Source: Clostridiales bacterium
GTDB taxonomy: Bacteria; Bacillota; Clostridia; Oscillospirales; CAG-272
NCBI GenBank assembly: GCA_012837425.1
Contig: DURE01000045.1
Location: 4,432-68,431 of the forward strand
Direction: 5' to 3'
Length of the DNA: 64,000 bases
A program made the position numbers and the translations under genes. Below, piece by piece: positions 10,055 through 49,048 of this stretch. The notes below the pieces were generated by a model. The model searched no databases, was not told where the DNA came from, and was given only the letters and a program-made list of their open reading frames with translations. How positions within the stretch are numbered: the stretch's first letter is position 1; the number at the start of each line of letters is the position of its first letter.

Positions 10055-10066
10055 AAAAGGATTTGT

Positions 10067-11068: not shown

Positions 11069-11085
11069 ACTGACAAGAGGACAAA

Positions 11086-13265: not shown

Positions 13266-13308
13266 GCGCGCCGCGTACCGACTCAGCGGGCGCTTTGGGA
13301 AAGGCAAA

Positions 13309-26572: not shown

Positions 26573-28045
26573 ATGCTTTACAAGAGCACAAGAGACCCAA
26601 GTGGTGCCAGGTACACCTCAGCCGAGGTTGTTAAGCGGGGTATTGCCGACGACGGCGGGCTGTATCTCCCCGAGAGCATACCGACCCTTGCCAAGGATGA
26701 AATAGACAAACTCCGCCATGTGCCCTACCACGAGAGGGCGGCTCACATACTTACAAAATTTCTCACCGACTACTCGTTTGAGGAACTGCTTGACGACTGC
26801 CGTGCAGCCTACCGCCCCGAATCCTTCCCCGGCGGGCCCGCCCCCCTTGCCCGGCTTGACGACAGACTCTTTTCACTTGAGCTCTGGCACGGGCCTACCG
26901 CGGCCTTCAAGGACATGGCGCTGCAGCTCATGCCGCGGCTGCTTACCCGCGCGCTGAAAAAAACCGGCGAGAGAAGAGCCGCACATATACTGGTCGCCAC
27001 CTCAGGGGATACCGGCAAGGCGGCGCTTGAGGGCTTTCGGGACATCGACCAGACCCGGATAACCGTATTCTACCCCGAAAACGGCGTGAGTCTGGTACAA
27101 AAACTACAGATGGCAACCCAGACCGGCGGAAATGTCGATGTCTGCGCGGTGCGCGGCAACTTTGACGATTGCCAAAACGGCGTAAAACAGCTATTCTCGG
27201 ATTCAGAACTTGCCCTGGAGCTCGACCGCCGGGGAGCCTTTCTCTCAAGCGCCAACTCGATTAACTGGGGGCGCCTTGTGCCGCAGGTGGTCTATTATGT
27301 TTCGCTTTATTGTGAGCTGCAAAACTGCGGTGCGCTGAGGGCAGGCGACCGGTTCTGTGTCTGCGTGCCGACCGGCAATTTCGGAAATATTCTGGCAGCA
27401 TACATTGCCGGGCTGATGGGTGTGCCGATAAAAAAGCTTATCTGCGCTTCAAACTTAAATAACGTGCTGACAGATTTCCTGCGCACCGGAAGATACGAAC
27501 GCAACCGCACCTTCCACAAGACAATGTCACCCTCGATGGATATACTGATATCTAGCAACCTTGAGCGGCTGCTCTATTACATCGCCGGCGCCGATAAAAC
27601 TCGGGAATACACCGCAAAGCTCGCAAAAACCGGCAGCTATTTGATTGCCGGCGAAGAAAAGGATAAAATATCCGAGAGCTTTATCGGCTATTTTGCAGAC
27701 GAAACCGAAACCACGGCGGCTATACAAGACATTTTCAAAAAGTACGGCTACCTTTGCGACACACATACCGCCGTGGCCTTTAGCTGCGCCGAAAAATACC
27801 GGCGCGAGACCGGCGACAGGAGCATTATCGCCGTTGTGTCAACCGCAAGCCCCTATAAGTTTGCGGGAGATGTGTACCGGGCGATGACCGGCAGCGCCCC
27901 CGCCGGAGAACTTGAGGCCTTTGACCAACTGCACAGCCTCACCGGCAGACCGATTCCCTCCCCTCTTGCCGGTATAGGCAGTCGGCCGATAAGATTTACA
28001 ACCACGGTCGCCCGGGAAGAGATGAAAAATTATATTCTTAAGTAA
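26573..28045 (+). CDS. thrC: Threonine synthase (long form)
   Basis: MLYKSTRD start, PTAAFKD PLP-lysine motif and SGDTG. Confidence 0.9.
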   Translation: MLYKSTRDPSGARYTSAEVVKRGIADDGGLYLPESIPTLAKDEIDKLRHVPYHERAAHILTKFLTDYSFEELLDDCRAAYRPESFPGGPAPLARLDDRLFSLELWHGPTAAFKDMALQLMPRLLTRALKKTGERRAAHILVATSGDTGKAALEGFRDIDQTRITVFYPENGVSLVQKLQMATQTGGNVDVCAVRGNFDDCQNGVKQLFSDSELALELDRRGAFLSSANSINWGRLVPQVVYYVSLYCELQNCGALRAGDRFCVCVPTGNFGNILAAYIAGLMGVPIKKLICASNLNNVLTDFLRTGRYERNRTFHKTMSPSMDILISSNLERLLYYIAGADKTREYTAKLAKTGSYLIAGEEKDKISESFIGYFADETETTAAIQDIFKKYGYLCDTHTAVAFSCAEKYRRETGDRSIIAVVSTASPYKFAGDVYRAMTGSAPAGELEAFDQLHSLTGRPIPSPLAGIGSRPIRFTTTVAREEMKNYILK

Positions 28046-32907: not shown

Positions 32908-33738
32908 TCAGCCACCGCATTTCTTTTCTATGCTGCCGGGACAGAGGGTGGGCGGGCTGAACTCGCTTACCGGGAACGCCATCTTTCTGAATAGGCTGCA
33001 GGGGTCGTCGTCGGCCGCCTCAACGCATTCCTTGTCGGGCACCATGTATTCGGTCGCGTTGATAAGGTACTGGCCGGGTCTTACAATCCTTACAACCGAG
33101 AAGATACCGAGCGTCACAGCCAGATATTTCTCGCGCTTGCCGTCGTCGCTGAGATTTCCGCTCAGACGGTGGGTCACCGCCTCGGGAATATCGCAGGCAC
33201 AGCAGCAGTAATAGCATTTCCGCTCGTCGCAGGGATCTATCACCTTGGTCTGAAGCACCACCGGGTCAACTACCTCGACAACCGCGTTGGGCACGTTCCT
33301 GCTGCAGCAAATCGGGTCGGGGTTCTGACAATAATCATTCGGGTCGGCATTGCTCTTGAAAATACAGACGTTGCTCTCACTCCCGTACAGGATAACCTTT
33401 TTCTCTACGACGGCTACCCCGTCGAACTCCTGGGCTTTCCCTCCGATGCAGGCCTCACACACCAGCTTGACATAGAATCTGATTGTCACCGTGTAGAAGC
33501 CGCGGTTGAAGAGCACCGGCTCGATGTTTATGTAAGTCCATGCAATGCACGCGCTTTTTGTCCTCACAACCGACGTGCGCTCTATGATATCGTTTCCGAA
33601 GTCGGTGAGTATGACCCGGACATTCTCAAAACAATCGCGGTCCCGGCAGGAGTCAAGTATTCTGTTTGTTTCAATGCAAATCATTTCCCTACCCGACGAA
33701 CCACCCGAACATCCGCATGAAAATCGATTTTCTGCCAT
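32908..33738 (-). CDS. Cysteine-rich hypothetical protein (276 aa, about 20 Cys)
   Basis: GGAGG lies 10 nt before ATG (MAENRFSCGCSGG...). CC, CCCAC and C-terminal KKCGG clusters. No family recognised. Confidence 0.6.
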   Translation of the reverse strand: MAENRFSCGCSGGSSGREMICIETNRILDSCRDRDCFENVRVILTDFGNDIIERTSVVRTKSACIAWTYINIEPVLFNRGFYTVTIRFYVKLVCEACIGGKAQEFDGVAVVEKKVILYGSESNVCIFKSNADPNDYCQNPDPICCSRNVPNAVVEVVDPVVLQTKVIDPCDERKCYYCCCACDIPEAVTHRLSGNLSDDGKREKYLAVTLGIFSVVRIVRPGQYLINATEYMVPDKECVEAADDDPCSLFRKMAFPVSEFSPPTLCPGSIEKKCGG

Positions 33739-33845
33739 ATTTCTGTAACCTCCAGTTTTTGTGCGGAGATAAGTCAATCTCCTATAATATCTTATGCGTT
33801 TTTCTGAAATTTGACATTGCTCGGGGATTTTATTTGTTTTTTAAC

Positions 33846-34065: not shown

Positions 34066-35625
34066 TCAGGGGTTGCTGTCATTGTATTCGGTAATATCAG
34101 CCTCGGTTATGCCGAAGTATTCCATAAGCCCCTCAACCGTAATATTCTCCTCACTGCCAAAATACGACATAAGGCTGATTGCAAGCAGCTTTGCCTTGGC
34201 AGATGAAACCGAATAATTGTAGCTCTCGGCCGTGCTGACAATTTTATCGGCAAGCGAATTCACGCGGCTCTCATAATCAAGCTCGGCAGTGGTATTTAGC
34301 TCCTCTACAAGCGCGTTTTTTATTTCATCATACGCTCCCGACTCATCGGCCGGAATGGTTGTGATATTGTATTCTCTGATAAGGTCCGAGCCGAGCTGCC
34401 CCACCGCCTCTATAACCGGGGCCATGTTTTGGTTCTCGCCGATTACTATCAGCGAGTCGGCCAGAAGCTCTATCGCCTCGTCCGAGCTGACGTCAACCTC
34501 CTCCCCGGTAAGGCTCATGATATTCTCCATCACAGAACTCCTATCGCCGTCGCTGCCGACCAGAGTGTTGAGAATATCTTCGACATTTTCGGGCGTCGCA
34601 CCCCTGAAGGACTGCATCAGCGCCCCCACGAGCACCCCTGCCGGGCTGTTTGCATTGGCGGGAGGCTCGATTCCGATAAAGCTCTCGCCGTTTTCCCAGG
34701 ACACGGTCGCCGCATTGAGAAGCTGCGAGGAGATCTCGGGCAGCAATACCGATTGTTCCATATAGGGTACAAGGACGGCGACCGCGTTGATAGCGGCCAG
34801 TTCTGTGGACATGCCTGACCCGAGGCTTTCGTTGTATATCCTCATCGCCTCGCCGGTGGCGTTAAGGATTACCGTCATCTCGTCGGCCAGGTTTGTGTCA
34901 TACCCTTCGATGCTAGTAAGTGCTTCGGTAATAAGGCCGGCGAAAAACCCGGCGAATGTAAAGCCACCATTTGAGGAGGAAAGGTCCCTGTGTACCAAAC
35001 CCGGCAAGAGCGAGGGCTTGAGTATATTTTTGGGAATTGCCACGCCGGCAGTGTCTGTCTGCCGGGTTTCATATCCCGGCAGGCCGAGCGCTTCAAGCGC
35101 CTGTGAGTCGACCGAGCGCAGGATAACAACTGCACAGGAGAGCGGGGCAAGCAGTACCGCGGCAATAAGAATTCCCTGAATCACGCCAATTCCGGCGCCT
35201 ATCCAGCTGCTGGCCGCACCTTTCGGGTCGCCGTCTTTTTTCACCAGCAGAATAAGCTTCTCGGACAGGGTTTTCAGCCTAATCAGCGAGAGCAGCTGCA
35301 ACACTCCGAAAACAAGCGCGAAAATAACCGGAACAAGCAGGGCGGTAATAATCCTGCCCACAAGCTGCTCGGTCTGGGGCGACCTGAGCATCAGCTGCTT
35401 TATCGGCTCGCTGTAAAACCGGGCGACAGCAATCAGGGCGACCCCGGAAAAAAGTCCGGCAAGCCACCTGGCAAGGAAAAAGGACAATACCGCGAGAACC
35501 GAAAGGTAAATCAGTCTTACAACCGACCGGCCGGTGCCGCGGCGGTAGCCCAGCCAGATGCATATGGCGAGAATCACCACCTGAAGGGCCAGAAATAGCA
35601 AGGATAAAAGAGTAGCGAGGTTCAT
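34066..35625 (-). CDS. CvpA-family membrane protein with a long C-terminal extension
   Basis: The N-terminal 4-5 TM region resembles colicin V production protein. The acidic soluble C-terminal half is unassigned. Confidence 0.55.
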   Translation of the reverse strand: MNLATLLSLLFLALQVVILAICIWLGYRRGTGRSVVRLIYLSVLAVLSFFLARWLAGLFSGVALIAVARFYSEPIKQLMLRSPQTEQLVGRIITALLVPVIFALVFGVLQLLSLIRLKTLSEKLILLVKKDGDPKGAASSWIGAGIGVIQGILIAAVLLAPLSCAVVILRSVDSQALEALGLPGYETRQTDTAGVAIPKNILKPSLLPGLVHRDLSSSNGGFTFAGFFAGLITEALTSIEGYDTNLADEMTVILNATGEAMRIYNESLGSGMSTELAAINAVAVLVPYMEQSVLLPEISSQLLNAATVSWENGESFIGIEPPANANSPAGVLVGALMQSFRGATPENVEDILNTLVGSDGDRSSVMENIMSLTGEEVDVSSDEAIELLADSLIVIGENQNMAPVIEAVGQLGSDLIREYNITTIPADESGAYDEIKNALVEELNTTAELDYESRVNSLADKIVSTAESYNYSVSSAKAKLLAISLMSYFGSEENITVEGLMEYFGITEADITEYNDSNP

Positions 35626-35804
35626 AATTCCACCCCCTGTGAATTTGTCAGTTCTATTCTATTACATTCGGCATAAATTGTCAACGAAATTTTGCGTGGG
35701 AATTCTAAATTTCGGAAGTATCCTTGAAATAGCGACAGCAGCGCGGGTTGGTGAGCCCGCGCTGCAATACTCAGCGATGTAGTTTTTGACAGTTGTTTGA
35801 GATT

Positions 35805-35867: not shown

Positions 35868-38800
35868 TTATATCTCAATCTCGCCGTCAAAGACCTTGAC
35901 GGTATCGCCGGTCAGTACAATACCGTTCTCGGTCCAGTTTACAATCAAATCTCCCCCGAGCACCTTAACGGTTATATCCTCGCCCATGTTGCAAAAGCCG
36001 TTCTTGATAGCGGCGGCCACCGCCGCGCAGGCGCCGGTGCCGCAGGCCTGGGTCTCGCCGTTGCCCCGCTCGTAGACCCGCATTTTCAGCGTATTGCGGT
36101 TGACCACTCTGACAAACTCGGTATTGACCCGCTCGGGGAATACCTTGTGATACTCAAAAAGCGGGCCGATATTCTCGATATCGATATTGTCAATCCGGTC
36201 GCAGAACACGACGCAGTGGGGATTTCCGACCGACAGGCAGGTGACTTTATATTCCCTGCCCCCGACTTCCAGCGGCACCATAACCGCTTCGGGCAGGTCG
36301 GTCAGCATCGGAATTGAGGCAGTCGAGAAGTCGGGGTGCCCGATATTGACGCTCACACAGGTCACCTTCCCGTCTGAGGTATAGAGTGTCAGGGTTTTCA
36401 CCCCGCTGTCGGTCTCAACCGTGACGGTGTCGCGGGCGACATATCCCTTGTCATAGATATATTTGCCGATATTGCGGATTGAGTTGCCCGCCATTTTGCC
36501 CCGGCTGCCGTCGCGGTTGTAAACCCGCATTTTAACGTCGGCTATATCCGACTTTTCAATAAGGACAATGCCGTCGCCGCCAACTCCCCGCCGCCGGTCG
36601 CATAGGGTGACGCAGAGCGATTCGGGGCTCTCTATCCGGTCGTCGAAATTCTCGATACAGATATAGTCGTCGCCGGTAGCATGCATCTTGGTAAATCTGA
36701 GCTTCTCGCGGGAGGTGCGCATTTTGTTTATGTTCACAAGCTCGGTGTTCTGCTCGTTGTAGCGGCTTGCTATAATGTCGGCTACGGCATTTGCAGTGTC
36801 AAGCGAGGTCACACAGGGGACAGAGAGCTGCAGCGCGCGTCGGTGGAGGGCGATATAGTCGTCAAGCGTGTTGTCGACGAGGGCGCCGGTGTAAATTACA
36901 TAGTTGATTTTGCCCTCCTCAAGCAGCTTGTAAACCCGCTTGTCCCGGATGCTCACGACAATCTGCACGTCAATTCCGAGTTTTGAGGCCGAGACCGCAG
37001 TCTCGGGCGTGGCGTAGATTTTAAAATGCAGGTCATCGAGCTTTTTGGCGATAGAGACAATTTCCTGTTGGTCCTGGGAGGCCGCGCTGAGCAGCACTCC
37101 GACCTCCCGGTGGGTAGCCGTGGATTTGAGCAGCATTCCCGCCGAGGTCATCCCCTTGAAGAGCGCCTCCTGCAGGTTTTTGCCGACCCCCAGCACCTCG
37201 CCGGTTGATTTCATCTCGGGGCCAAGATAGGAGTCGACATCGCTAAGCTTTTCAAACGAGAATACCGGCACCTTGACCGCAAAGTAAGGCGGGGTCTTAT
37301 ATAGCCCGGTGCCGTAGCCCAGATCGCGCAGCCTGCTCCCGGTCATAACCTTTGAGGCTATTTCGACCATCGGTATGTCGGCGGCCTTGCTGATATAGGG
37401 GACGGTCCGCGAGGCGCGCGGATTGACTTCGATTACGTAAAGCTCGTTGTGGTATATAAGGAACTGGATATTCACCAGTCCCTTGGTGCCGAGCGACTTT
37501 GCCAGCTTCTCGGAGCTCTCGAGCACCAGTTTCATCATCTTGTCGTTGATGTTGTAGGGCGGAAAGACAGCAATAGAGTCGCCGCTGTGAACCCCGGCGC
37601 GCTCGATGTGCTGCATGACGCCGGGGATAAGCACATCCTCGCCGTCCGAGATGACATCGACCTCAATTTCCGTGCCGCTCATGTACTTGTCGATGAGGAC
37701 CGGGTTGTCAATTCCCTCGGCCAGTATGCGGTTCATGTAGGTTTTAACTTCGTTTTCGCTGTAGACAATCTTCATGTGCTGGCCGCCGATAACGTACGAG
37801 GGTCTCAGCAGCACCGGGAAGCCGAGCGTCCGGGCGGCCTCAAGCGCTTCTCTGAGCGTGTTTACCGCCATTCCGCGCGGCCGCTTTATATTGAACTTCT
37901 CAAGCAGCCGGTCAAATTTCTCGCGGTCCTCGGCAATGTCAATCCCCTCGGCCGAAGTCCCGAGAATGGGTATATTGCATTTGTCGAGGTACTTTGTCAG
38001 CTTAATGGCCGTCTGCCCGCCGAAGGCCACCACAACGCCGACAGGCTTTTCAACCTTGATTATGTTCATCACGTCCTCGGGGGTCAGCGGCTCGAAGTAC
38101 AGCCGGTCGGCGGTGTCGTAGTCGGTGGACACCGTCTCGGGGTTGTTGTTTACAATCACAACGTCATACCCCAGGTCCTTGAGGGTCCAGACGCAGTGAA
38201 CCGACGAGTAATCAAACTCAATACCCTGCCCGATGCGGATTGGACCCGAGCCGAGCACCAATATTACCGGCTTGCTGCTGCGCTTCATATTGCGGGATTC
38301 GCATTCTGTATCGTAGGTTGAATAAAAGTAGGGGGTCACCGCGTCGAACTCGGCGGCGCAGGTGTCGACCATTTTGTAGACGCAATTAGCCTCAAACGGC
38401 AACTTGCGGCAGCCCGAAATGCGCGCGAGCGCGGCGTCGGTATATCCGAGCTTTTTGCCCTTCTTGTAGAGCTCTTCGGTCAGCCCCTTGGCAATCTGAG
38501 CCTCGTAATCCACAAGGTTTTTTATTTTTTTGATAAAGAAGCGATCAATTTTGGTCAGCTCGAAAATCCGGTCAATCGACATTCCGCCCTTTATGGCCTC
38601 AAAAATCGTGAAAATCCGCCTGTCATCCGGCCATATTAAGCGTTCTGTGATGTCCTTATTGCTTATCGGCTCGGCATTTAACGTATCTAGTGAGAGCTCG
38701 GCGCCGCGGACCGCCTTCATCAGCGCCATCTCAAAGGACGGGGCAATTGACATAACCTCGCCGGTAGCCTTCATCTGGGTACCGAGCTTCCTTGAGGCGC

Positions 38801-39899
38801 CGACGAATTTGTCAAACGGCCACTTCGGGAATTTCACGACGACGTAGTCAATCGCCGGCTCAAAGCAGGCGCAGGTCTTCCCGGTAATTTCGTTTGTAAT
38901 TTCGTCAAGGGTGTATCCCAGCGCAATTTTGGTGGTGATTTTGGCAATAGGGTAGCCGGTGGCCTTGGAGGCCAGCGCCGAGGAGCGCGAGACCCGCGGG
39001 TTGACTTCTATCACCGCGTACTCAAAGCTGTCGGGGTCAAGCGCGAACTGACAGTTGCAGCCCCCGACAATGTCGAGAGCCTCGATGATTTTAAGTGCCG
39101 AGGAGCGCAGCATCTGGTATTCCTTGTCGGCGAGTGTCAGCGCCGGCGCCACCACAATGCTGTCGCCGGTATGCACGCCGATGGGGTCGACGTTCTCCAT
39201 GCTGCAGATCGCTATTGTGTTGCCTACGCTGTCGCGCATGGTCTCAAACTCTATTTCCTTCCAGCCGTATATATATTTTTCGACCAGTATCTGGCCTATC
39301 GGCGAGGCTTCGATTCCGGCAGTAGCCACCGAGCGCATCTCCTCCTCGCTGTATGCAACCCCGCCGCCGGTGCCGCCGAGTGTGAAGGCCGGGCGTATGA
39401 TGACCGGGTATCCTATTCCGGCGGCAATCGCCATTGCGGTCTCTATGTCGGTAGCTATATCCGAGGGCACTGTTGGCTCGCCTATCGAGCGCATGGTCTC
39501 CTTGAAGAGCTGCCTGTCCTCGGCCTTGTCTATTACCTCGGTGTTGGTGCCTATAAGCCGTACGCCGAATTTTTCCAGTATTCCCTTCCTGCTCAGTTGC
39601 ATGGCGAGCGTCAGACCGGTCTGACCGCCAAGCCCTGCCAGAAGGCTGTCGGGCCTTTCTTTCTCTATTATCCTTGCGACCGTCTCGGCGGTGAGCGGCT
39701 CGAGGTATATTTCGTCGGCCAGTGCGCTGTCGGTCATGATAGTGGCCGGGTTTGAGTTGACCAGCACCACATTGATGCCGGCCGCCTTGAGCATGCGGCA
39801 GGCCTGCGCGCCGGCATAGTCAAATTCGGCGGCCTGGCCTATTACAATAGGGCCGGAGCCGATAACCAGCACTTTTTTTATACTCTTGTCAAGCGGCAT
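35868..39899 (-). CDS. carB: Carbamoyl-phosphate synthase large subunit fused in frame to a C-terminal DapF-like (diaminopimelate epimerase fold) domain
   Basis: A single 1343-aa ORF. Residues 1 to about 1065 form a complete CarB with two ATP-grasp units and an MGS-like domain. The last 270 aa or so carry DapF signatures: FTKMHATGDDY, SVGNPHCVVF and ERGNGETQACGTGACAA. Confidence 0.85.
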   Translation of the reverse strand: MPLDKSIKKVLVIGSGPIVIGQAAEFDYAGAQACRMLKAAGINVVLVNSNPATIMTDSALADEIYLEPLTAETVARIIEKERPDSLLAGLGGQTGLTLAMQLSRKGILEKFGVRLIGTNTEVIDKAEDRQLFKETMRSIGEPTVPSDIATDIETAMAIAAGIGYPVIIRPAFTLGGTGGGVAYSEEEMRSVATAGIEASPIGQILVEKYIYGWKEIEFETMRDSVGNTIAICSMENVDPIGVHTGDSIVVAPALTLADKEYQMLRSSALKIIEALDIVGGCNCQFALDPDSFEYAVIEVNPRVSRSSALASKATGYPIAKITTKIALGYTLDEITNEITGKTCACFEPAIDYVVVKFPKWPFDKFVGASRKLGTQMKATGEVMSIAPSFEMALMKAVRGAELSLDTLNAEPISNKDITERLIWPDDRRIFTIFEAIKGGMSIDRIFELTKIDRFFIKKIKNLVDYEAQIAKGLTEELYKKGKKLGYTDAALARISGCRKLPFEANCVYKMVDTCAAEFDAVTPYFYSTYDTECESRNMKRSSKPVILVLGSGPIRIGQGIEFDYSSVHCVWTLKDLGYDVVIVNNNPETVSTDYDTADRLYFEPLTPEDVMNIIKVEKPVGVVVAFGGQTAIKLTKYLDKCNIPILGTSAEGIDIAEDREKFDRLLEKFNIKRPRGMAVNTLREALEAARTLGFPVLLRPSYVIGGQHMKIVYSENEVKTYMNRILAEGIDNPVLIDKYMSGTEIEVDVISDGEDVLIPGVMQHIERAGVHSGDSIAVFPPYNINDKMMKLVLESSEKLAKSLGTKGLVNIQFLIYHNELYVIEVNPRASRTVPYISKAADIPMVEIASKVMTGSRLRDLGYGTGLYKTPPYFAVKVPVFSFEKLSDVDSYLGPEMKSTGEVLGVGKNLQEALFKGMTSAGMLLKSTATHREVGVLLSAASQDQQEIVSIAKKLDDLHFKIYATPETAVSASKLGIDVQIVVSIRDKRVYKLLEEGKINYVIYTGALVDNTLDDYIALHRRALQLSVPCVTSLDTANAVADIIASRYNEQNTELVNINKMRTSREKLRFTKMHATGDDYICIENFDDRIESPESLCVTLCDRRRGVGGDGIVLIEKSDIADVKMRVYNRDGSRGKMAGNSIRNIGKYIYDKGYVARDTVTVETDSGVKTLTLYTSDGKVTCVSVNIGHPDFSTASIPMLTDLPEAVMVPLEVGGREYKVTCLSVGNPHCVVFCDRIDNIDIENIGPLFEYHKVFPERVNTEFVRVVNRNTLKMRVYERGNGETQACGTGACAAVAAAIKNGFCNMGEDITVKVLGGDLIVNWTENGIVLTGDTVKVFDGEIEI

Positions 39900-40966
39900 T
39901 ATCTGCTCCTCCCTTCTCTGGCCATCATCTGAATAAACCGGTCGAACAAAAAGGACGTGTCAAGCAGCCCTGCACTTGCCTCGGGGTGGAATTGAACCGA
40001 AAAGGCCATGAGGTCGGGGTAGTCTATCCCCTCGCAGGTACCGTCGTTGGCGTTCTGAAACAAGAGCTTTCCGCATTTGATGCTTGCATTGTCGACCGCA
40101 TAGCCGTGGTTCTGGCTGGTTATATATGTCCGGGTCCCCGAAAGGTCGCGCACCGGCTGGTTTGCACCGCGGTGGCCGTATTGCAGCTTTATTGTACGGC
40201 TCCCGGCGGCCAGCGCCAGCAGCTGGTGCCCGAGACAGATACCGAATATCGGGAGTTTCCCGAGCAGTTTTTCAAGCTGCCCTATCTGGTACTTGTTTTC
40301 TGCCGGGTCGCCGGGACCGTTGGGCAGCACAAGGCCGTCGGGACTGTCCGAGAGGATTTCCTCCGCCGATACGGTTGCTGGAACCACTGTAACGCTGCAA
40401 CCGCGCATCTGCAGGGATTTTTTAATATAATTCTTGGCGCCGTAGTCAATCAGGGTCGCCCGGTATTTTTCGTTTTCTGCCGGGTAATCGGTTTTTTCCT
40501 TGCGGCTCACACTCAGCACGGCATCCTTAATTTTGTAGTTTTTAATAAACGAGAGGTCCTCGGGGACACTGTCGCAGATTGCCGCGTTCATAACCCCGTG
40601 CTCGCGTATGATTCTTGTCACCTGCCGGGTGTCGATACCGCACAACCCGACAACATTTTTGTCCTTCAGGAACTTGTCAAGATCATACTGGCAGCGGAAA
40701 TTTGAGGGGAAATCGCACCACTCGCGCACGACATAGCCCCGCACACAGCAGGGGCCCTCAAAGTCGGCCTCGATGATTCCGTAATTGCCGATAAGCGGGA
40801 AGGTCTGCAGCACAATCTGACTATAGTAGCTCGGGTCGGTGAGCGTCTCGATATAGCCGCACATGTTGGTGGTAAAGACCAGCTCGCCGACGTTCTCGGT
40901 ATCCGCGCCGAACTTCTCGCCCGGGAAAACCCTCCCGTCCTCCAGCACCAGAAAAGCTTTTTTCAT
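39899..40966 (-). CDS. carA: Carbamoyl-phosphate synthase small (glutaminase) subunit
   Basis: GICLGHQLL catalytic Cys motif and FQFHPEA-like VQFHPEA. Its stop overlaps the carB start. Confidence 0.9.
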   Translation of the reverse strand: MKKAFLVLEDGRVFPGEKFGADTENVGELVFTTNMCGYIETLTDPSYYSQIVLQTFPLIGNYGIIEADFEGPCCVRGYVVREWCDFPSNFRCQYDLDKFLKDKNVVGLCGIDTRQVTRIIREHGVMNAAICDSVPEDLSFIKNYKIKDAVLSVSRKEKTDYPAENEKYRATLIDYGAKNYIKKSLQMRGCSVTVVPATVSAEEILSDSPDGLVLPNGPGDPAENKYQIGQLEKLLGKLPIFGICLGHQLLALAAGSRTIKLQYGHRGANQPVRDLSGTRTYITSQNHGYAVDNASIKCGKLLFQNANDGTCEGIDYPDLMAFSVQFHPEASAGLLDTSFLFDRFIQMMAREGRSR

Positions 40967-41103: not shown

Positions 41104-42093
41104 CTAAGTAAGCGTCGCCGCCATCACTGCTTTTATTGTGTGCATCCTGTTCTCGGCCTCGTCGAATACCACCGAGCGCTCGCTCTCAAAGACCTCGTCT
41201 GTGACCTCAAGCCCGCAAAGCCCGTATTTCTCGCCGATTTCCCGGCCGATGCCGGTTTTCATGTCGTGAAAGGACGGCAGGCAGTGCATGAAAACTGCCG
41301 CAGGGTCGGCCAGGCTCATTATTCTACCGTTTACCTGATAGGGGAGCAGCGCCTTAATTCTTTCTCCCCATGCCGCCTCGGGCTCGCCCATTGACAGCCA
41401 GACGTCGGTATAAACAATCTGCGCCCCGCGCGCGGCTTCCTCGGGGTCTGAAATAAACCTGAGTTCAGAACCGGTGGTGCGCGCTATCTCCTGGCATTTC
41501 TCTATAAGCTCTTTTGATGGGAAAAACTCAGCGGGTGCGGCAGCCGTGAAATTCAGCCCAAGATTGGCGCAGCCCACCATAAGCGAGTTGCCCATGTTGT
41601 AGCGCGCGTCGCCGAAATAGACAAGATTCAGTCCCTTGAGATATCCGAAGCGCTCTTTTATGGTGAGCATATCGGCGAGCACCTGCGTCGGGTGAAATTC
41701 GTTGGTAAGCCCGTTCCAGACCGGCACACCGGCGTATTTTGCTATTTCCTCGACAATAGACTGCTCAAACCCGCGGTACTCAATCCCGTCATACAGCCGA
41801 CCGAGTACCCGCGCCGTGTCGGAAATGCTCTCCTTTTTGCCTATCTGCGAGCCCTGTGGGTCAAGATAGGTGACGTTCATACCGAGGTCGTAGGCGGCGA
41901 CCTCAAAGCTGCAGCGAGTGCGGGTGCTGGTCTTCTCGAAAATCAGGGCGATATTCTTGCCCTCGCAAAGCCTGTGGGGTATGCCGGCCTTTTTCTTTGC
42001 TTTAAATTCGGCGGCAAGCTCAATGAGGCCAAGTATTTCCTCCGGGGTAAAATCAAGCAGCTTTAAAAAGCTTCTTCCGGTAAGATTCAACAT
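41104..42093 (-). CDS. argF: Ornithine carbamoyltransferase
   Basis: STRTR, HPTQ and HCLP motifs. GAGGGAGGGGAG RBS before MLNLTGRSF. Confidence 0.9.
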
Positions 42094-42106
42094 TGTCTCC
42101 CCTCCC

Positions 42107-43270
42107 TCACTCGGCGCAGGCCGCCTTGAGCACTGCAACCGCCCTTTTGAGCAAATCCTCAGAGATATTAAGCGGCGGCAGCAGCCTGACTTTGTTTTTG
42201 GCTCTGATAACTATGACACCCATCTCGCGGCATCGTCTGATGACCTCGTCGGCCGGCTTTGAGGTTTCAATGCCTACCATCAGCCCCATGCCGGTGACAC
42301 CCATAACCCCCGGCGCGCCGCGAAGCTCCTTCATTATATAATCCGACTTTTCTTTTACTTTGTCAAGTAGTTTTTTATCAATTCTCGATAAAATATTCAG
42401 CGCCCCGGCAGATGCCACCGGGTTACCGCCGAAGGTCGAGCCGTGCGAGCCGGGAGTGAACACGTCCTTCACCTTCTCGCCAAGCAGGGTCGCGCCTATC
42501 GGCAGCCCGCCGCCAAGCCCTTTTGCAAGGGTCACTATATCCGGGATTATGTCGTATTTCATGTAGGCAAAATACTCCCCGGTCCGCCCGCAGCCGGTCT
42601 GAACCTCGTCGACGACAAGCAAAAGGTCGTGTTTGACGGCAATATCTGCAAGTCTACCGACAAACTCCTGCGGCAGCGGCACAACACCACCCTCGCCCTG
42701 TATCAGCTCAAACATCACCGCCGCTGCCCTGCCGGCCTTTGCCTGCTCCTCAACCGAATCAAGGTCGCCCGGCTCGACATAAACGAACCCCGGGGTGAGC
42801 GGCTGATAATCGGTATGGAAGGTTTCCTGCCCGGTGGCGGCCAGCGTGGTTATCGTGCGGCCGTGAAAGCTGTTCTTCAGAGTTATTATATTATACCTCT
42901 CGTCCCCGTATTTAGTCGCCGCATATTTTCGTGCGGCCTTTATTGCGCACTCGTTAGCCTCGGCACCCGAGTTTGAGAAAAAAACCTTCTTCATGCCAGA
43001 TATACAGCAAAGCCGTTCGGCAAGCAACACGCAGGGGTCACTGTAAAATAAATTTGAGGTGTGCTGGCAGATTTTTAGCTGTTTTGTGACAGCCTCAACC
43101 CACTCGTCGTCGCACATACCGAAGGAGTTGACCGCAATGCCGCTCCCCAGGTCTATATATTCATTGCCCTGCTCGTCGTAGGCAAGCGCCCCCTTCCCGC
43201 GCACAATACGAAGCGGGTAGCGCGCGTATGTGGCGGCGATATATTCGTGATCCTTCCCGATAATGTTCAT
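42107..43270 (-). CDS. argD: Acetylornithine aminotransferase
   Basis: Class III aminotransferase, with [11 protein letters not shown] and the PLP lysine in TLAKGLGGG. Confidence 0.9.
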
Positions 43271-43301
43271 AAGGCTCCCTCCCCCGGTAATCTGTAGTCT
43301 C

Positions 43302-44168
43302 TTACTCGTCGGCCGCCGCAATCATGGTTCCGGCGCCCTCGTCGGTCAGCATCTCAATAAGCAGCGAATGGGGCACCCGCCCGTCTATGATGGTAACCCT
43401 TCTTACCCCAAGCTCTATGGCGTCAATGCAGCACTGGATTTTCGGAATCATACCGCCCGATACCGCGCCGCTCTTTATCATTGCTCTGGCCTCGTCAACA
43501 TTCATGAAGTGTATGAGCGAGGACGGGTCATTTACGTCTCGCAGCACTCCGGCAATGTCGGTCAGGGTCATGAGGCGCTCGGCACACATAGCCCCGGCTA
43601 TATATGCCGCCGCGGTGTCGGCGTTTATGTTGTATATATTCCCTTCCTTGTCGCAGCCCACCGTCGAGACTACCGGGATGTAACCGTTCTGAAGCAAATC
43701 CATTATCGGCTTAACGTTGACCCGGGTAATCTCACCGACAAAGCCGTGTACCTCGTCGCGCCGTCTGGCTTCAATCAGCCGGCCGTCAATGCCGCAGATA
43801 CCGATAGCGTTGCCGCCCTTGGTCTGAATCAGGTTGACGATGTTCTTGTTGACCTTGCCGGCCAGCACCATTTTGACAATTTCAGCCGTCTCCCTGTCGG
43901 TCACGCGCAGGCCGTCGACAAACACCGATTTCTTGCCGAACTTCTCGAGCACCTCGGTAATTTCGGGGCCGCCGCCGTGCACCAGCACTACTTTGACGCC
44001 TATCAGTCCGAGCAGTATTATATCGTCCATGACCTGGCGCTTGAGTTCCTCGTTGACCATGGCGTTCCCGCCGTACTTTATGACCACTATTTTGTTATAA
44101 TACTTTTGTATGTAAGGTAGCGCCTGGGTCAGCACCTCAGCGCGTTTGAAGTTGTCAATCCCGGTCAT
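43302..44168 (-). CDS. argB: Acetylglutamate kinase
   Basis: VIKYGGNAM, VLVHGGGPEI and NINADTAA motifs. Confidence 0.9.
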   Translation of the reverse strand: MTGIDNFKRAEVLTQALPYIQKYYNKIVVIKYGGNAMVNEELKRQVMDDIILLGLIGVKVVLVHGGGPEITEVLEKFGKKSVFVDGLRVTDRETAEIVKMVLAGKVNKNIVNLIQTKGGNAIGICGIDGRLIEARRRDEVHGFVGEITRVNVKPIMDLLQNGYIPVVSTVGCDKEGNIYNINADTAAAYIAGAMCAERLMTLTDIAGVLRDVNDPSSLIHFMNVDEARAMIKSGAVSGGMIPKIQCCIDAIELGVRRVTIIDGRVPHSLLIEMLTDEGAGTMIAAADE

Positions 44169-44183
44169 TTTGCCCTTCCCTCC

Positions 44184-45395
44184 TCAAGTTCTGTAGGCTC
44201 CGTTGATTTTTACATAATCGTATGTCAGGTCGCAGCCCCAGGCAACCGCTCCGGCGCCGCCGCTCTCCAGGTCTATGAGTATGATTATTTCCTTTTCAAG
44301 CAGTATTTTCTTTGCTGCCTCCTCAGAGAAGCCGACTGCGGTGCCGTCCTCGCAGACCTTGACTGTCCCCGCCACAGAGGCAAACGAAATGTCAATTTTG
44401 TTTACGTCAACCGGAGCGCCGCTGTAACCGATGGCGCAGAGCACACGCCCGAAGTTGGCGTCGGCCCCGAACATCGCGGCCTTGACCAGCGTGGAGGATA
44501 CTACACCTCTGGCCACAACCCGTGCGGTCCCCTCGTCGGCGGCTCCCGTAACTCGGCACTCAAGCAGCTTTGTGGCCCCCTCGCCGTCAGATGCAATCAT
44601 TCTGCACAGCGGCAGCGTCACGGCACTCAGCGCCTTTTTGAAGGTTTCAAAATCTTTACCTTTGCAGACAATCTCGGGGTTGCCGGCCATGCCGTTGGCA
44701 AGTATGGCTACCATGTCGTTTGTCGAGGTGTCGCCGTCTATGCTTATCATGTTGAAGGTGTTTTTAACATCCTCAGAAAGCGCTTTTTGAAGCATGGCCG
44801 GGGAAATCGCCGCGTCGGTGGTTATAAAGACCAGCATGGTTGCCATGTCGGGGTGTATCATGCCCGAGCCCTTGGCTATCCCGCCCATGCGGCAGACCCG
44901 CCCGCCTATTTCAAACTCGACCGCTATCTCCTTTTTTATGGTGTCGGTCGTCATTATCCCCTCGGCTGCGTCCGAGCTGTTTTTCCCTAGTGAGCTTACA
45001 AGCGTCGGTATGCCCTCTTTAATCGGGGTGATGTCAAGCTTCTGTCCTATCACGCCTGTTGAGGCCACAATCACGTCTTCAGCGGATATGCCGAGCTCGC
45101 GCGCGAGCAGGCAGCAGGTTTGTTCTGCTACTTCAACTCCGTCTTTGTTGCAGGTGTTGGCGTTTCCGCTGTTGCAGATTACCGCCTGCGCATATCCATT
45201 GGAAATATTCTGCCTGGTTACGGTTAGCGGCGCGCCCTGCACTAAATTCGTGGTGTAAACCGCGGCAGCCGAGGCGACTTTTTCACTGTAAATTAAGGCA
45301 AGGTCGAGTTTTGTGCGGTTTTTGCGGATACCGCAATGAATACCGCTTGCCGCAAACCCCAGAGCGGCACAGACGCCGCCGTCTATTATCTTCAT
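44184..45395 (-). CDS. argJ: Bifunctional ornithine acetyltransferase / N-acetylglutamate synthase
   Basis: ATMLVFITTDA autoprocessing site, with length and context typical of ArgJ. Confidence 0.9.
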   Translation of the reverse strand: MKIIDGGVCAALGFAASGIHCGIRKNRTKLDLALIYSEKVASAAAVYTTNLVQGAPLTVTRQNISNGYAQAVICNSGNANTCNKDGVEVAEQTCCLLARELGISAEDVIVASTGVIGQKLDITPIKEGIPTLVSSLGKNSSDAAEGIMTTDTIKKEIAVEFEIGGRVCRMGGIAKGSGMIHPDMATMLVFITTDAAISPAMLQKALSEDVKNTFNMISIDGDTSTNDMVAILANGMAGNPEIVCKGKDFETFKKALSAVTLPLCRMIASDGEGATKLLECRVTGAADEGTARVVARGVVSSTLVKAAMFGADANFGRVLCAIGYSGAPVDVNKIDISFASVAGTVKVCEDGTAVGFSEEAAKKILLEKEIIILIDLESGGAGAVAWGCDLTYDYVKINGAYRT

Positions 45396-45438
45396 TTCAG
45401 CAATAACTCCGTTTATGTTGATGTGTTCATTCTACTTA

Positions 45439-46368
45439 TCAGAGTACAAGTCCGGTCCTCGGGTCAAGCCCGAGCGCGATGTTCATGCACTCGACAGCAG
45501 AGCCCGAGGCCCCTTTCCCGAGGTTGTCAAACTGGGCGGCGAGGGTTATTCTGTCCCCGTTGCCCATGACACATATGTTCATGTAATCGGCACCCGAGAG
45601 CGCTCCGCTTGATACAAACCCGGCTTTGTCAATTGTGTCACAATACCGTACAATCTTGCTGCTATACTTCTTATTGTATAGCGTTGTGATGTCGGCTGCA
45701 TCTGCGCCGCTCAGCATTTCGGCAAACAGCGGTACTGTCACAAGCATCCCGCTGTAATAGTCGGCAACAACAGGTTCAAAGTGCGGCGCCTTTGTAAGGC
45801 CGGATACCGCCATCATTTCCTTTATATGCTTGTGTTGCTGTTCAATCGCATAAACCCGCGGGAAGTCAAGCTCAGGCGCGCGGCCCTCGGACTCATACTC
45901 GGCTATCATCCTGTTGCCGCCGCCCGAGTAGCCGGTCAGCGAAAAACAGGTGAGCCTTATGTCCCTCGTGAGAACGCCGGCCTCAATCAAGGGGTAGACC
46001 AGCGCAATAAAGCCGGCAGCGTGGCAACCCGGGACCGCAATCCGTTTTGAGGTTCTTATCGCCTCATAGTGCCGCTCGGACAGCTCAGGAAAGCCGTATG
46101 CCCAGCCGGGGGTCGTTCGGTGGGCGGTTGAGGCGTCGATTATCACGGTATCGGGGTTTTCGACCAGCGCCACCGCCTCCATTGCTGCCGCGTCGGGCAG
46201 GCATAGAAAGGCAACATCAGCCTCATTGAGCAGCCTTGCCCGTTCGACCGGGTCTTTTCTCAGCGCTGTTTTAATGGCGAACAGCTGTATATCACTTCTC
46301 TGCGAAAGGCGTTTGTGTATTCTCAGGCCGGTAGTGCCGGCTTCCCCGTCTATAAATACTTTTTTCAT
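45439..46368 (-). CDS. argC: N-acetyl-gamma-glutamyl-phosphate reductase (short type)
   Basis: MKKVFIDGEAGTTGLRI N-terminus and PGCHAAG catalytic Cys. ATGA overlap with the argH stop. Confidence 0.85.
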   Translation of the reverse strand: MKKVFIDGEAGTTGLRIHKRLSQRSDIQLFAIKTALRKDPVERARLLNEADVAFLCLPDAAAMEAVALVENPDTVIIDASTAHRTTPGWAYGFPELSERHYEAIRTSKRIAVPGCHAAGFIALVYPLIEAGVLTRDIRLTCFSLTGYSGGGNRMIAEYESEGRAPELDFPRVYAIEQQHKHIKEMMAVSGLTKAPHFEPVVADYYSGMLVTVPLFAEMLSGADAADITTLYNKKYSSKIVRYCDTIDKAGFVSSGALSGADYMNICVMGNGDRITLAAQFDNLGKGASGSAVECMNIALGLDPRTGLVL

Positions 46369-47747
46369 TTGCCAAGATACTCCCTGAGCCATTTTAGCTG
46401 TGCTGCAACCGAATCCGGCCCGGTTCCCCCGGCCGACACCCGCTTTGCAACACAATTTGACAAGTCAATTTCAGAATAAAGATCTGCTTCAAATAAATCG
46501 CAAAAGGATTTATACTCCTCAAGCGTCAGGGTCTCAAGCACCTTTTGGTTTTTCATCGCATAGGCCACTATCTCCCCTACCGTCCGGTAGGCCGACCTGA
46601 AGGGCAGGCCGCGCTTTGTTAGGTAGTCGGCAAGGTCGGTGGCATTTATAAAGCCCTCCTGCGCCGCGGCATGCATCCGCTCGCGATTGACCTTCATGGT
46701 GGCTATCATCGGCTCCATGATGCTAAGGCAGGCCCGGACGGTGTCGACACTTTCAAACACCTCTTTCTTGTCCTCCTGCATATCCTTGTTGTATGCCAGC
46801 GGCAGCCCCTTCATGGTGGTCAGCAGTGAAACCAGATTCCCGTAAACCCGCCCGGTCTTGCCGCGCACCAGCTCGGCCATGTCGGGATTTTTCTTCTGGG
46901 GCATAATACTTGAGCCGGTAGTGTAGCCGTCGTCAAGCTCGACAAAGCCAAACTCCCAGGAGGACCAGAGAATAAGCTCCTCGGCAAGCCTTGAGAGGTG
47001 CATCATCAGTATCGAGAGCGCGCTCATGAGTTCAAGGCAGAAGTCGCGGTCGGACACGCCGTCAATGCTGTTCTTGGTTATCCCAGAAAAACCGAGCAGC
47101 TCTGCCGTCAGCTCACGGTCGGCGTCATGTGTCGTGCCGGCCAGCGCACAAGAACCCAAGGGCGACAGGTTCATGCGCTTTACCGCATCACAAATCCGGT
47201 CAATATCCCGCTCGAGCATAGCTGCATATGCCAGCATGTGATGTGCAAATACAATCGGCTGAGCGCGCTGCAGGTGGGTGTAACCCGGCATTATAACATC
47301 AAGGTTTGCCTCGGCCTGTCTGAGTATCGCCCCCATCAGCTGCTTTATCAGGGAAATAATCCCGTCTGCCTCGTCCCTGAGATACATCCGCAAATCGAGC
47401 GCTACCTGGTCGTTGCGGCTGCGGGCGGTATGCAGCTTTTTTCCGGTCTCGCCAATCCGCCGGGTCAGCTCGGCCTCGACAAACATGTGTATGTCCTCGG
47501 CCTCCTGGTCAATCTCAAGCCTCCCCGCCTCAAGGTCGGTAAGAATCCCCTCAAGACCGCTTTTGATTTTCTCATACTCGTCCTGTGAGATTATCCCCTG
47601 CCGCGCGAGCATTGCCGCGTGCGCCGCCGAGCCGGCGATGTCCTGCCGGAACATCCGGCAATCAATGCTTATTGACGAGTTGAAGTCGTCGGCCGCGCGC
47701 TCCGGCCTGCCGCGGGTGCGTCCGGCCCAGAGTTTTTCACTTGCCAT
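46365..47747 (-). CDS. argH: Argininosuccinate lyase
   Basis: Fumarate-lyase signature GSSIMPQKKNPD and N-terminus KLWAGR. Confidence 0.9.
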   Translation of the reverse strand: MASEKLWAGRTRGRPERAADDFNSSISIDCRMFRQDIAGSAAHAAMLARQGIISQDEYEKIKSGLEGILTDLEAGRLEIDQEAEDIHMFVEAELTRRIGETGKKLHTARSRNDQVALDLRMYLRDEADGIISLIKQLMGAILRQAEANLDVIMPGYTHLQRAQPIVFAHHMLAYAAMLERDIDRICDAVKRMNLSPLGSCALAGTTHDADRELTAELLGFSGITKNSIDGVSDRDFCLELMSALSILMMHLSRLAEELILWSSWEFGFVELDDGYTTGSSIMPQKKNPDMAELVRGKTGRVYGNLVSLLTTMKGLPLAYNKDMQEDKKEVFESVDTVRACLSIMEPMIATMKVNRERMHAAAQEGFINATDLADYLTKRGLPFRSAYRTVGEIVAYAMKNQKVLETLTLEEYKSFCDLFEADLYSEIDLSNCVAKRVSAGGTGPDSVAAQLKWLREYLGK

Positions 47748-47768
47748 AATGTTTCGGTCCTTTCTTCA

Positions 47769-47815
47769 ACCCGGGGGCTATGCCCCGGCCCCCCGCTTAA
47801 GGAACTTTAATTTTG
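47769..47815. repeat. Dispersed palindromic intergenic repeat, truncated copy F
   Basis: CCCGGGGGCTATGCCCCGGCCCCCCGCTTAAGGAACTTTAA aligns with copy C. Confidence 0.45.
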
Positions 47816-47818
47816 TGA

Positions 47819-49048
47819 TTATTTGATGTTGTTTTTTTCCTTCATCTTTGCGATTATCTTTGACTGCAGCCCGTAGAGGTTTATAAAGCCGGTGGCGTCG
47901 CTCTGGTTGTAGACATTGTCCTCGCTGAAGGTGGCTATTTCGGCATCGTAGAGCGAGTATGGAGAGGTTACCCCGGCATTTATCATGTTGCCCTTGTAGA
48001 GCTTGAGTGTGACGTCTCCGGTGACATACTTCTGGGTTGACTTCACAAAAGCAAGTATCGCCTCGGTCAGCGGGGTAAACCACAGACCGTAATACACCTG
48101 CTCTCCGAGCTTCTGGGCAACCAGCGCTTTGTAATGTGCGGTATCGCGGTCAAGGCAGATAGTCTCGAGCACCTTGTGAGCGCGGTAGAGGATAGCGCCC
48201 CCCGGCGTCTCGTAAACCCCCCGGCATTTCATGCCGACAAGCCGATTCTCAACAATGTCAAGAAGCCCTATGCCGTTCTCGCCGCCGAGCTTGTTGAGCT
48301 TTCGGACAAGTGCCACAGGGTCAAGTTCTTCCCCGTCAACCGCCGTGGGAATACCGGCCTCAAAATGAATCGTGACATATGTCGGCCTGTCGGGCGCGGC
48401 CTCGGGGGACACCCCCATCTCAAGGAAGCCGGGGTTGTTGTACTGCGGCTCGTTTGCCGGGTCCTCAAGGTCAAGCCCCTCATGCGAGAGATGCCAGATA
48501 TTCTTATCCTTTGAATAGTTGGTCTCGCGACTGATTCTCAGCGGAATACCGTGCGCCTCGGCGTAGTCTATTTCCTCGTCTCGGGACTTAATATTCCACT
48601 CGCGCCAAGGCGCAATTATATGCATATCGGGTGCGAAGGCCTTTATCGCCAGCTCAAAGCGCACTTGGTCGTTTCCCTTTCCGGTGCAGCCGTGGCAAAC
48701 CGCGTCGGCGCCCTCGGCAAGTGCTATTTCGGCAACCCGCTTGGCTATAGGCGGGCGCGCAAGTGCGGTGCCGAGCATATAGTCCTCATATAGCGCCCCG
48801 GCCTGAACGCAGGGGAAGGCATATTCCAGAAGGAACTCGCGGGCAAGGTCCTCGATATACAGCTTTGACGCGCCGGTCTTGAGCGCTTTTTCCTCAAGGC
48901 CGACCAGCTCGTCGGTCTGCCCGAAGTTTCCGCATACGGCTATGACCTCGCAGTTGTTGTAGTTTTCCTTAAGCCACGGGATGATTATTGAAGTATCAAG
49001 TCCTCCCGAATAGGCCAGCACGACCTTTTTTATTTTGCTTTTATCCAT
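47819..49048 (-). CDS. argG: Argininosuccinate synthase
   Basis: AYSGGLDTS and [13 protein letters not shown] motifs. Confidence 0.95.

Follow-up and report, generated by a model that had tools for sequence, protein, structure and literature searches.

Carbamoyl-phosphate synthetase (CPSase) is a textbook allosteric enzyme. In E. coli, the MGS-like domain of its large subunit, CarB, is regulated by ornithine, IMP and UMP, and we know of no CPSase with an additional racemase-fold domain. DapF, the diaminopimelate (DAP) epimerase, is an antibiotic target and a classic two-thiol epimerase. Amino-acid racemases and epimerases that work without a cofactor employ a Cys/Cys acid–base pair, and replacing one of the two cysteines changes or abolishes the reaction (PMC8142540); no activity can be detected in the C73A/C217A form of E. 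coli DapF (PMC6061791). The E. coli protein also activates RppH by binding to it, non-catalytically (PMC6061791, PMC6061855). Here, we analyse a gene from a Clostridiales bacterium in which CarB and DapF are joined. It lies within a 64,000-nucleotide stretch of contig DURE01000045.1 (hereafter the window), is the last gene of an arginine operon, and encodes a CarB that continues into a complete DapF-like domain (denoted DapF*) with alanine in place of the first catalytic cysteine. From sequence comparisons, we suggest that DapF* is a pseudoenzyme domain, catalytically disabled but able to bind a ligand, through which the arginine-specific CPSase is regulated or organised, a reading to which we would give a probability of about one half. 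To judge from residue conservation, the ligand is likely to be a DAP isomer or a close analogue.

The ORF listing and a reading of the DNA across the junction agree on a single ORF of 1343 residues (35868..39899, minus strand), with neither a stop nor a change of frame between ASRYNEQNTELVNINK and MRTSREKLRFTKMH at the CarB/DapF junction. Residues 1-1047 give a full-length match to the NCBIfam equivalog NF003671 (1440 bits; cut-off 599; 1058-position profile) and score 1420 bits against TIGR01369; Pfam detects the full set of CPSase domains in this part (PF25596 twice, PF02786 twice, PF02787 and PF02142). The carA partner is present, as it is in all related loci. Residues 1068-1341 score 271 bits against TIGR00652 (cut-off 114.65), contain two DAP_epimerase repeats (PF01678) and find B. 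anthracis DapF (2otn) as the best PDB sequence match by phmmer (E 3.8e-71). The codon of Met1060 (ATG, 36720-36722) is a relic of the dapF start. As the preliminary description of this locus had noted, no Shine–Dalgarno sequence precedes it (gtgaacataaacaaaATG), unlike the real ATG starts of the same operon, most of which have motifs of the GGAG, GAGG or AAGGA type. Of 120 homologues, 104 have Met here and 15 have Leu.

The same description had claimed that the first catalytic thiol is lost and the second kept, and had allowed for the motif having been mis-registered. In phmmer alignments to three solved structures (2otn, 9mro and 5ha4), the Ala of GKMAGNSIR stands opposite the catalytic Cys of xCGNGxR, which confirms the register, and the homologues described below agree. 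DapF* thus lacks the thiol that defines a DapF, Cys73 (H. influenzae/E. coli numbering), the base for the L-centre; Cys1286 aligns with the second catalytic cysteine. Equivalents of N64, N75, N157, H159, N190, E208, R209 and T/S219, which line the substrate pocket, are all present. The GCG codon of Ala1137 is two substitutions away from either Cys codon (TGY), and the alanine is therefore not a single miscall.

A query consisting of the CarB tail and the DapF domain returned 120 top matches of 57-100% identity, essentially all of which span the junction. At the first catalytic position, these closest homologues have Ala (108), Gly (10), Ser (1) or Arg (1), and none has Cys; the second catalytic Cys is present in 120/120. 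Six species-level metagenome-assembled genomes (MAGs) from different studies (loci L006-L011) contain an intact stop-to-stop frame of ~1340-1363 residues with Ala or Gly at the site, and in two further MAGs (L012 and L013), where the copies are cut by the contig end, the residue is Gly. Public protein clusters hold full-length members of 1343, 1341 and 1344 residues; an exact look-up of the window's own 1343-residue protein in protein records gave no entry. The nearest genomes, at 92% identity, are MAGs with no finer label than Eubacteriales or Clostridiales; at ~60% identity, the genomes are from Acutalibacteraceae. The earlier claim of a genuine translational fusion therefore stands, since the frame is kept across many independent assemblies, and the missed stop or frameshift that had been feared is in effect ruled out by the same open frame in six MAGs of different projects. 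Both the fusion and the loss of the cysteine recur in relatives, and the opposite outcome, orthologues always encoded by two separate genes, is clearly not what is found. We considered whether carB is split in relatives, all the search matches being of 620 residues or fewer, and rejected it: the matches are short because the clusters are represented by fragments from contig ends or by calls that a TAG interrupts, whereas full-length proteins are among their members.

The fusion extends well beyond the relatives with Ala or Gly. Searched exhaustively with phmmer, a set of 1.84 billion representatives yielded 21,224 DapF relatives, 135 of the best 150 being of the Cys type, and Cys-type fusions occur within those best 150 (P0124, full length at 1349 residues, P0121, P0126 and P0141). 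A second search, seeded on P0124, gave 120 fused proteins among the matches listed. Both cysteines are present in 87 of these 120; Gly, Ser, Ala, Phe or Asn occupies the first position in the remainder, some of which have Ser or Ala at the second. Among the 87 is the fusion of the cultured Ruminococcus bicirculans (P0384, WP_443723541.1). We built a neighbour-joining tree from a trimmed alignment of 290 non-redundant DapF domains. On it, the fused proteins form essentially one clade (156/159 tips) with Cys as the inferred root state, and the window protein sits in a nested subclade of 84 non-redundant tips without a single Cys (Ala 78, Gly 4, Ser 1, Arg 1). Parsimony over the 159 fusion-clade tips gives ~11 changes at Cys73 and ~5 at Cys217, with A, G, S, F, N and R as replacements, compared with three non-Cys tips at each position among the 131 outside (130 stand-alone proteins and one stray fusion); counts of changes from such a tree are approximate, but the contrast between the groups is large. 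The tree places the fusion before the loss of the cysteine and indicates a large, old family, widespread among Oscillospirales-type Clostridia, of which the gene in this genome is just one member. The ancestral type, which is still common, has retained both cysteines and probably works as a true bifunctional CarB-DapF; the catalytic cysteines appear to be expendable only in the fusion context.

A few members of the family are unusual in other ways. P0163 (579 residues), an Ala-type fusion with 44% identity to the window domain, falls outside the main clade on the neighbour-joining tree; here the fusion or the loss may have arisen independently a second time, or the placement may be an artefact of the tree. 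Two Gly-type fusions (P0316 and P0343; L020, JGI 3300002450, 81-kb contig) are labelled as 'Treponema sp.' MAGs, and a fusion with Ser/Ala at the two cysteine positions (P0355) is labelled Syntrophomonadaceae, which suggests horizontal transfer outside Oscillospirales or errors of binning or labelling. P0078 (512 residues, 26-kb contig) matches both DAP_epimerase and OTCace_N in Pfam; ~128 N-terminal residues of ornithine-carbamoyltransferase type are followed by a CarB tail and a Gly-type DapF, and a deletion or rearrangement may have joined argF to the end of carB.

Substitution rates were compared by the Nei–Gojobori method (NG86) for unsaturated pairs. Between the window and L006, the ratio of non-synonymous to synonymous rates (dN/dS) is 0.054 for DapF*, 0.074 for CarB residues 1-930 and 0.073 for the MGS domain; the corresponding values are 0.040, 0.061 and 0.087 for the window and L009, and 0.051, 0.053 and 0.081 for L006 and L009. 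DapF* is under strong purifying selection, with dN/dS as low as that of CarB, and is not a decaying relic. Its identity to orthologues is similar to that of the neighbouring arginine enzymes (for L007, 79% against 65-84% for ArgC/J/B/D/F and CarA). In the 84-tip subclade, the equivalents of N64, G74, N75, N157, H159, N190, E208, R209, C217, G218 and T219 are 95-100% conserved, a level of 95% being reached by only 27% of columns (pocket versus rest, Mann–Whitney p = 3e-5). The seven polar pocket residues (N64, N75, N157, H159, N190, E208 and R209) stand at 96-100% against a domain average of 71%, and pocket conservation equals that of active stand-alone DapFs. Cys1286 is 99% conserved. The sole relaxed pocket position is the equivalent of Asn11, a mixture of Asn and Asp in the subclade (58% majority) and 100% Asn in every other DapF group; the GDDY box remarked on earlier is thus real in the window protein (Asp1077) but is not a fixed trait. 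Only five positions in the whole domain are specific to the subclade (N1084, E1115, A1137, R1264 and V1266), and apart from the A1137 site, none is in a pocket motif. DapF* combines the loss of an essential residue with purifying selection, as expected of a ligand-sensing pseudoenzyme domain. We take Cys73 and Asn11 to flank the reacting stereocentre, with the carboxylates and the distal L-centre held in place by the other pocket residues; if so, the domain would have abandoned chemistry at the proximal centre and continued to bind.

The subclade has cysteines of its own at residues 1091, 1096 and 1100 (36600-36629; motif C-P-E-S-L-C-x-x-L-C-D-R), the first just before helix alpha-1 and the others on it; this helix presumably lies on the outside of the barrel. 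They occur in 81/85/95% of the subclade, 6/0/0% of Cys-type fusions and 2/1/30% of stand-alone DapFs, and may form a redox site, a metal site or an interface. The window protein itself has Ser at 1091. We considered a relocated catalytic thiol at 1091 or 1096 and did not adopt it. Cys1100 is enriched in the subclade as well, but is also seen in 30% of stand-alone DapFs.

An AlphaFold2 model of residues 931-1343, made from a 130-sequence alignment, has a mean predicted local distance difference test (pLDDT) of 90.1, with the MGS-like domain and both DapF lobes well folded. Confidence dips at ~1045-1065, and the predicted template-modelling (TM) score is 0.69, which together imply a flexible tether of ~20 residues, not a fixed interface. 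In Foldseek searches, DapF structures rank first (E down to 7e-35), with TM-scores of 0.83-0.91 to solved DapFs; the best match is the ligand-bound 9mro (TM 0.91, rmsd 2.2 A). PhzF, enzymes of the proline-racemase family and hydroxyproline dehydratases are far behind; the one-thiol derivatives of racemase folds stand at E ~1e-16, against 1e-35 for DapF.

Gene context separates the window type from the Cys type. In 7/7 window-type loci with enough upstream sequence (the window, L001, L006-L009 and L011), the fusion ends an argCJBDF-carA-carB cluster, and none of the seven contains dapL. The Cys-type fusions lie directly downstream of carA but outside arginine operons in 4/4 contexts, next to spore-germination and riboflavin genes (L003 and L004), purine genes (L018) or an NAD synthase gene (L019). 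In R. bicirculans, dapL immediately follows the fusion (TIGR03542, 507 bits; cut-off 365), and dapL likewise stands directly downstream of a stand-alone Cys-type dapF in a Ruminococcus MAG. These contexts suggest that the Cys-type fusion is plausibly a true bifunctional CarB-DapF, and that the window type has left the lysine context. Adjacency to dapL does not serve as a general mark of Cys-type fusions, as only R. bicirculans has it, and L003/L004, L018 and L019 do not. Nor did we retain orthology between the fused DapF of R. bicirculans and the stand-alone dapF-dapL locus of L014, which is not demonstrated by an identity of only 50%.

We propose that carB was fused to a functional dapF in the ancestor of a large Oscillospirales group, many of whose descendants would have kept both cysteines, with the R. 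bicirculans fusion still adjoining dapL. The DapF moiety would then have gained a second, non-catalytic role within the fusion. In several lineages, epimerase chemistry would have become dispensable and the catalytic cysteines would have been lost, and in the window lineage the gene would have become the terminal cistron of the arginine operon. At present, the domain would bind LL- or meso-DAP or a close analogue, and its occupancy would be signalled to the adjacent CPSase allosteric domain through the known open-to-closed clamping of the lobes and/or DapF-type dimerisation, making it an extra regulatory or assembly module. We infer, from the way the enzyme works and from mutants of other DapFs, that epimerase activity should be lost, since Ala or Gly fills the first position and no acid/base residue has been gained. 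A ligand-binding pseudoenzyme is the most economical reading because the fold, the pocket and the connection to the allosteric domain are all kept by selection. The preliminary description had offered either a ligand-sensing pseudo-enzyme or a changed activity. The retained pocket, the dN/dS of 0.04-0.05 and a repeated loss of cysteine confined to the fusion clade point in this direction, with binding and regulation predicted.

Several points weigh against this proposal. There is no obvious physiological reason for an arginine-specific CPSase to sense DAP, and if these genomes make DAP or lysine, a pseudoenzyme requires that they have another route to meso-DAP. The AlphaFold2 model predicts no defined contact between DapF* and the MGS domain. 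The 99% retention of Cys1286 would also fit residual chemistry. Finally, the ligand is a guess from residue conservation, with the pocket residues assigned to DAP binding after the H. influenzae DapF-aziDAP structures.

The domain might instead be a purely structural module, kept without any ligand for the folding or oligomerisation of CPSase, for example through a DapF-type dimerisation that bridges two CarB C-termini. Strong purifying selection and repeated loss of catalytic residues would both suit such a module, and so may the subclade-specific cysteines 1091 and 1096 and the substitutions N1084, E1115 and R1264. The aromatic equivalent of E. coli Tyr268, which is needed for dimerisation of that enzyme (PMC6061791), is moreover kept as Tyr or Phe (position 1337). 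A scaffold, however, has no need of seven polar pocket residues conserved so far above the rest of the domain, and we regard this explanation as unlikely.

A changed activity, in which Cys1286 alone would drive a one-base reaction on a DAP-like substrate (elimination or dehydration, unidirectional stereo-inversion or proton exchange), has precedents: a Cys/Thr Asp/Glu racemase is unidirectional, a Cys-to-Thr enzyme is a hydroxyproline dehydratase, and single-Cys mutants of glutamate racemase catalyse elimination (PMC8142540). The conservation of Cys1286 and of an intact pocket would suit such an activity, as would the longer branches of the non-Cys tips (0.436 versus 0.284), which are expected after a functional shift. 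Against it, the replacement is Ala or Gly, without the hydroxyl of the Thr/Ser precedents, and the pocket shows no re-tooling apart from the relaxation at Asn11, so that neither feature expected of a dehydratase or lyase derivative is seen. In related fusion lineages, the second Cys is lost as well (Ser/Ser, Ser/Ala and Gly/Ser), which argues that chemistry is not generally required. We also know of no natural beta-substituted DAP substrate, and consider a changed activity improbable. A more speculative version, to which we give slightly less credence still, is that the single-thiol domain is not inert and that Cys1286, with or without a hydrosulfide-like molecule in the cavity, catalyses a new one-base or chemically rescued reaction on a diamino-acid substrate, physically coupled to carbamoyl-phosphate synthesis; if true, this would be a previously unknown enzymatic step or checkpoint in the arginine metabolism of anaerobic Clostridia.

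It is harder still to believe that the protein continues to serve the cell as its diaminopimelate epimerase, with water, a hydrosulfide-like small molecule or another residue standing in for the missing thiol. The whole DAP pocket and Cys1286 are conserved, a small Ala or Gly would leave a cavity, and the hosts are strict anaerobes of sulfide-rich habitats (anaerobic digester, gut and rumen MAGs); in addition, tblastn with the DapF domain finds the fusion alone, and no second dapF, within the 64-kb window. However, the two-thiol mechanism is well established (PMC8142540), and mutation of both cysteines inactivates the E. coli enzyme (PMC6061791). No new conserved acid/base residue is found near the motif, dapL adjacency is absent from all seven window-type loci, and catalytic residues have been lost repeatedly within the fusion clade, with chemically varied replacements (F, N, R and S included). 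In our view, the window protein should not be annotated as EC 5.1.1.7.

An artefact of this assembly (a missed stop or frameshift at the junction, or a miscalled Cys codon) could appeal only to a 2.4-kb metagenome contig with TAG at the junction (L005) and to L001, which has two in-frame TAGs inside carB, and is for practical purposes refuted by the open frame in six MAGs and in many full-length database members, by the two base changes that separate GCG from TGY and by a non-Cys residue in all 120 closest homologues. These TAG-bearing metagenome contigs, all from one project, are the only exceptions to the open frame. In L001 (7697-11725; ENA ERZ27247188, k141_60464), the TAGs align with Ser306 and Glu767 of the window protein, and in L005 (1350-1375; ERZ27316002), the TAG aligns with Tyr1047 at the junction, all otherwise invariant positions of carB-dapF orthologues. 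The L001 gene is otherwise in a single frame with 71% identity over 1341 residues, and the six genes upstream of it, argC to carA, end in TAA or TGA and never in TAG. The TAGs could be due to sequencing artefact, pseudogenisation or a lineage that reads through TAG. P0122, which we had considered as a stand-alone Ala-type DapF, was rejected as such, since it proved to be a fusion as well, interrupted by a TAG that lies in frame where Tyr1047 is encoded.

The features of the locus are collected in Table 1. The operon reads argG, argH, argC, argJ, argB, argD, argF, carA, carB::dapF* on the minus strand, and the same gene order is found upstream of the fusion in L001, L006-L009 and L011. The genes argB, argJ, argH, argG and argC have NCBIfam equivalog matches; argD and argF were named from ORF position and from likeness to genes of related arginine operons with Aminotran_3 and OTCace Pfam matches. 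The operon probably ends at the promoter-like site beyond the fusion. Neither dapL, ddh and lysA nor any other DAP or lysine gene is present among the ~43 window ORFs annotated by NCBIfam. A scan of a genome collection with exact 8-mer peptides found 10 loci, with no genome represented twice.

Table 1. Coordinates of the carB::dapF* fusion and associated features in the window.
Feature	Position	Strand	Remarks
carB::dapF* fusion ORF	35868..39899	-	1343 aa; stop TAA 35868-35870; last cistron of arginine operon
CarB part, residues 1-1047	36759..39899	-	2x pre-ATP-grasp + ATP-grasp, oligomerisation domain, MGS-like allosteric domain
MGS-like allosteric domain of CarB, residues 946-1031	36807..37064	-	PF02142, E 8.6e-09; well folded in AlphaFold2 model
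Junction/linker, residues ~1046-1067	36699..36764	-	RYNEQNTELVNINKMRTSREKL; lowest pLDDT blocks (74, 65); holds Met1060
DapF-like domain, residues 1068-1343	35871..36698	-	complete two-lobed diaminopimelate-epimerase fold
Asp1077 codon GAC	36669..36671	-	Asn11-equivalent position; GNDF to GDDY
Ala1137 codon GCG	36489..36491	-	site of first catalytic Cys (Cys73)
Cys1286 codon TGC	36042..36044	-	retained second catalytic Cys (Cys217 equivalent) in ACGTG; ERGNGETQACGTG
carA (CPSase small subunit)	39899..40966	-	stop overlaps carB ATG (TAATG)
argG, argH, argC, argJ, argB, argD, argF	41104..49048	-	upstream genes of operon
Promoter-like site TTGACA-17-TAGAAT	35656..35684	-	11/12; between fusion stop and next gene; consensus match only

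The remainder of the window has genes for housekeeping and sporulation, namely gatAB, aspS, cysS, guaB, tig-clpP-clpX, thrC, PdaA/PdaB, a SCIFF maturase and a cluster for corrinoid-dependent methyl transfer, and the organism is an uncultured spore-forming anaerobe. Two conserved genes downstream of the fusion belong to no NCBIfam family. One (32908-33777, minus strand) encodes a Cys-rich protein of 289 residues that is 72% identical in L007 and L008, where it also adjoins clpX. The other (34066-35625, minus strand) encodes a protein of 519 residues with a hydrophobic N-terminus that looks membrane-associated; its gene has the same direction as the fusion in the window but is convergent with it in L006 and L009, the relatives at 92% identity, suggesting a local inversion. 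The corrinoid-dependent methyltransferase cluster (8133-14859, plus strand) comprises a corrinoid protein of the 'pyl_corrinoid' type, an AraC-type regulator, a methyltransferase of the MtaA/CmuA family and a RamA/AcsV-like reductive activase, and hints at metabolism of methylated amines or methoxy compounds. An ApgM-type protein encoded near thrC (the two genes are at 21795-23015 and 26573-28045, both plus strand) also passes the cut-off of the 'proposed homoserine kinase' model TIGR02535 (478 bits versus 446), which agrees with published proposals of a non-orthologous homoserine kinase.

Full-text searching of the literature found no paper on a CarB-DapF fusion or on a naturally thiol-less DapF, in line with the earlier remark that the architecture is uncharacterised. 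The closest relatives of the window protein are the Cys-retaining Oscillospirales fusions (P0124, MGI6497870.1, 'Oscillospiraceae bacterium'; P0384), which share its architecture, a junction of the form …SRY.E.NTEL.DIN.MR…, the fusion clade on the DapF tree and carA directly upstream. Unlike the window protein, they keep both cysteines and Asn11, are probably bifunctional and lie outside arginine operons; they are annotated yet, as far as we could find, undescribed. Pipeline names for P0124, P0384 and P0019 (MBO7250651.1) are 'carbamoyl-phosphate synthase large subunit' or 'diaminopimelate epimerase, partial', and neither the fusion nor a missing catalytic Cys is flagged in these records. With such inconsistent annotation, metabolic reconstructions may credit a DapF activity that is probably lacking, and this would mis-predict lysine and DAP prototrophy.

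Canonical DapF (2otn from B. anthracis, 9mro from a cyanobacterium, 1gqz/2gke from H. influenzae) has the same two-lobed fold (TM up to 0.91). The window domain is 45-50% identical to the Firmicutes type and shares the motifs FNxDGS, GN, GNPH, ERxNxEF, ERGxGET and ACGTG, as well as the second catalytic Cys. It differs in having Ala for the first Cys and an Asn11 equivalent relaxed to Asn/Asp, and in its position at the CarB C-terminus, with no start or ribosome-binding site of its own, in an arginine operon and with no lysine-pathway neighbour. In trans-3-hydroxy-L-proline dehydratase (Cys to Thr) and the Asp/Glu racemase EcL-DER (Cys/Thr), one Cys is likewise replaced and the pocket and other Cys kept (PMC8142540), but there the replacement is Thr or Ser, the pockets are re-tooled and the substrates are known, whereas the window protein has Ala or Gly in an unchanged pocket. 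The nearest functional precedent is the E. coli DapF-RppH pair, in which a DapF fold serves as the regulatory partner of another enzyme independently of the lysine pathway; E. coli DapF is a separate, fully active, moonlighting protein, and the window domain shares one polypeptide chain with its partner, CPSase, and one of its catalytic residues is gone. In E. coli CPSase, regulatory input arrives at the C-terminal end of the large subunit, the very place where the extra domain is attached here. Evolution appears to have run this experiment repeatedly: in a DapF attached to CarB, the cysteines can be given up and the pocket cannot, so that recruitment of the racemase fold as a metabolite sensor of CPSase becomes directly testable. 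Should the fold prove to be such a sensor, it would establish a new cross-talk between lysine or cell-wall and arginine metabolism in abundant gut, rumen and digester Clostridia. Set beside these systems, the window protein is a new combination of known kinds, a domain fusion and a pseudoenzyme.

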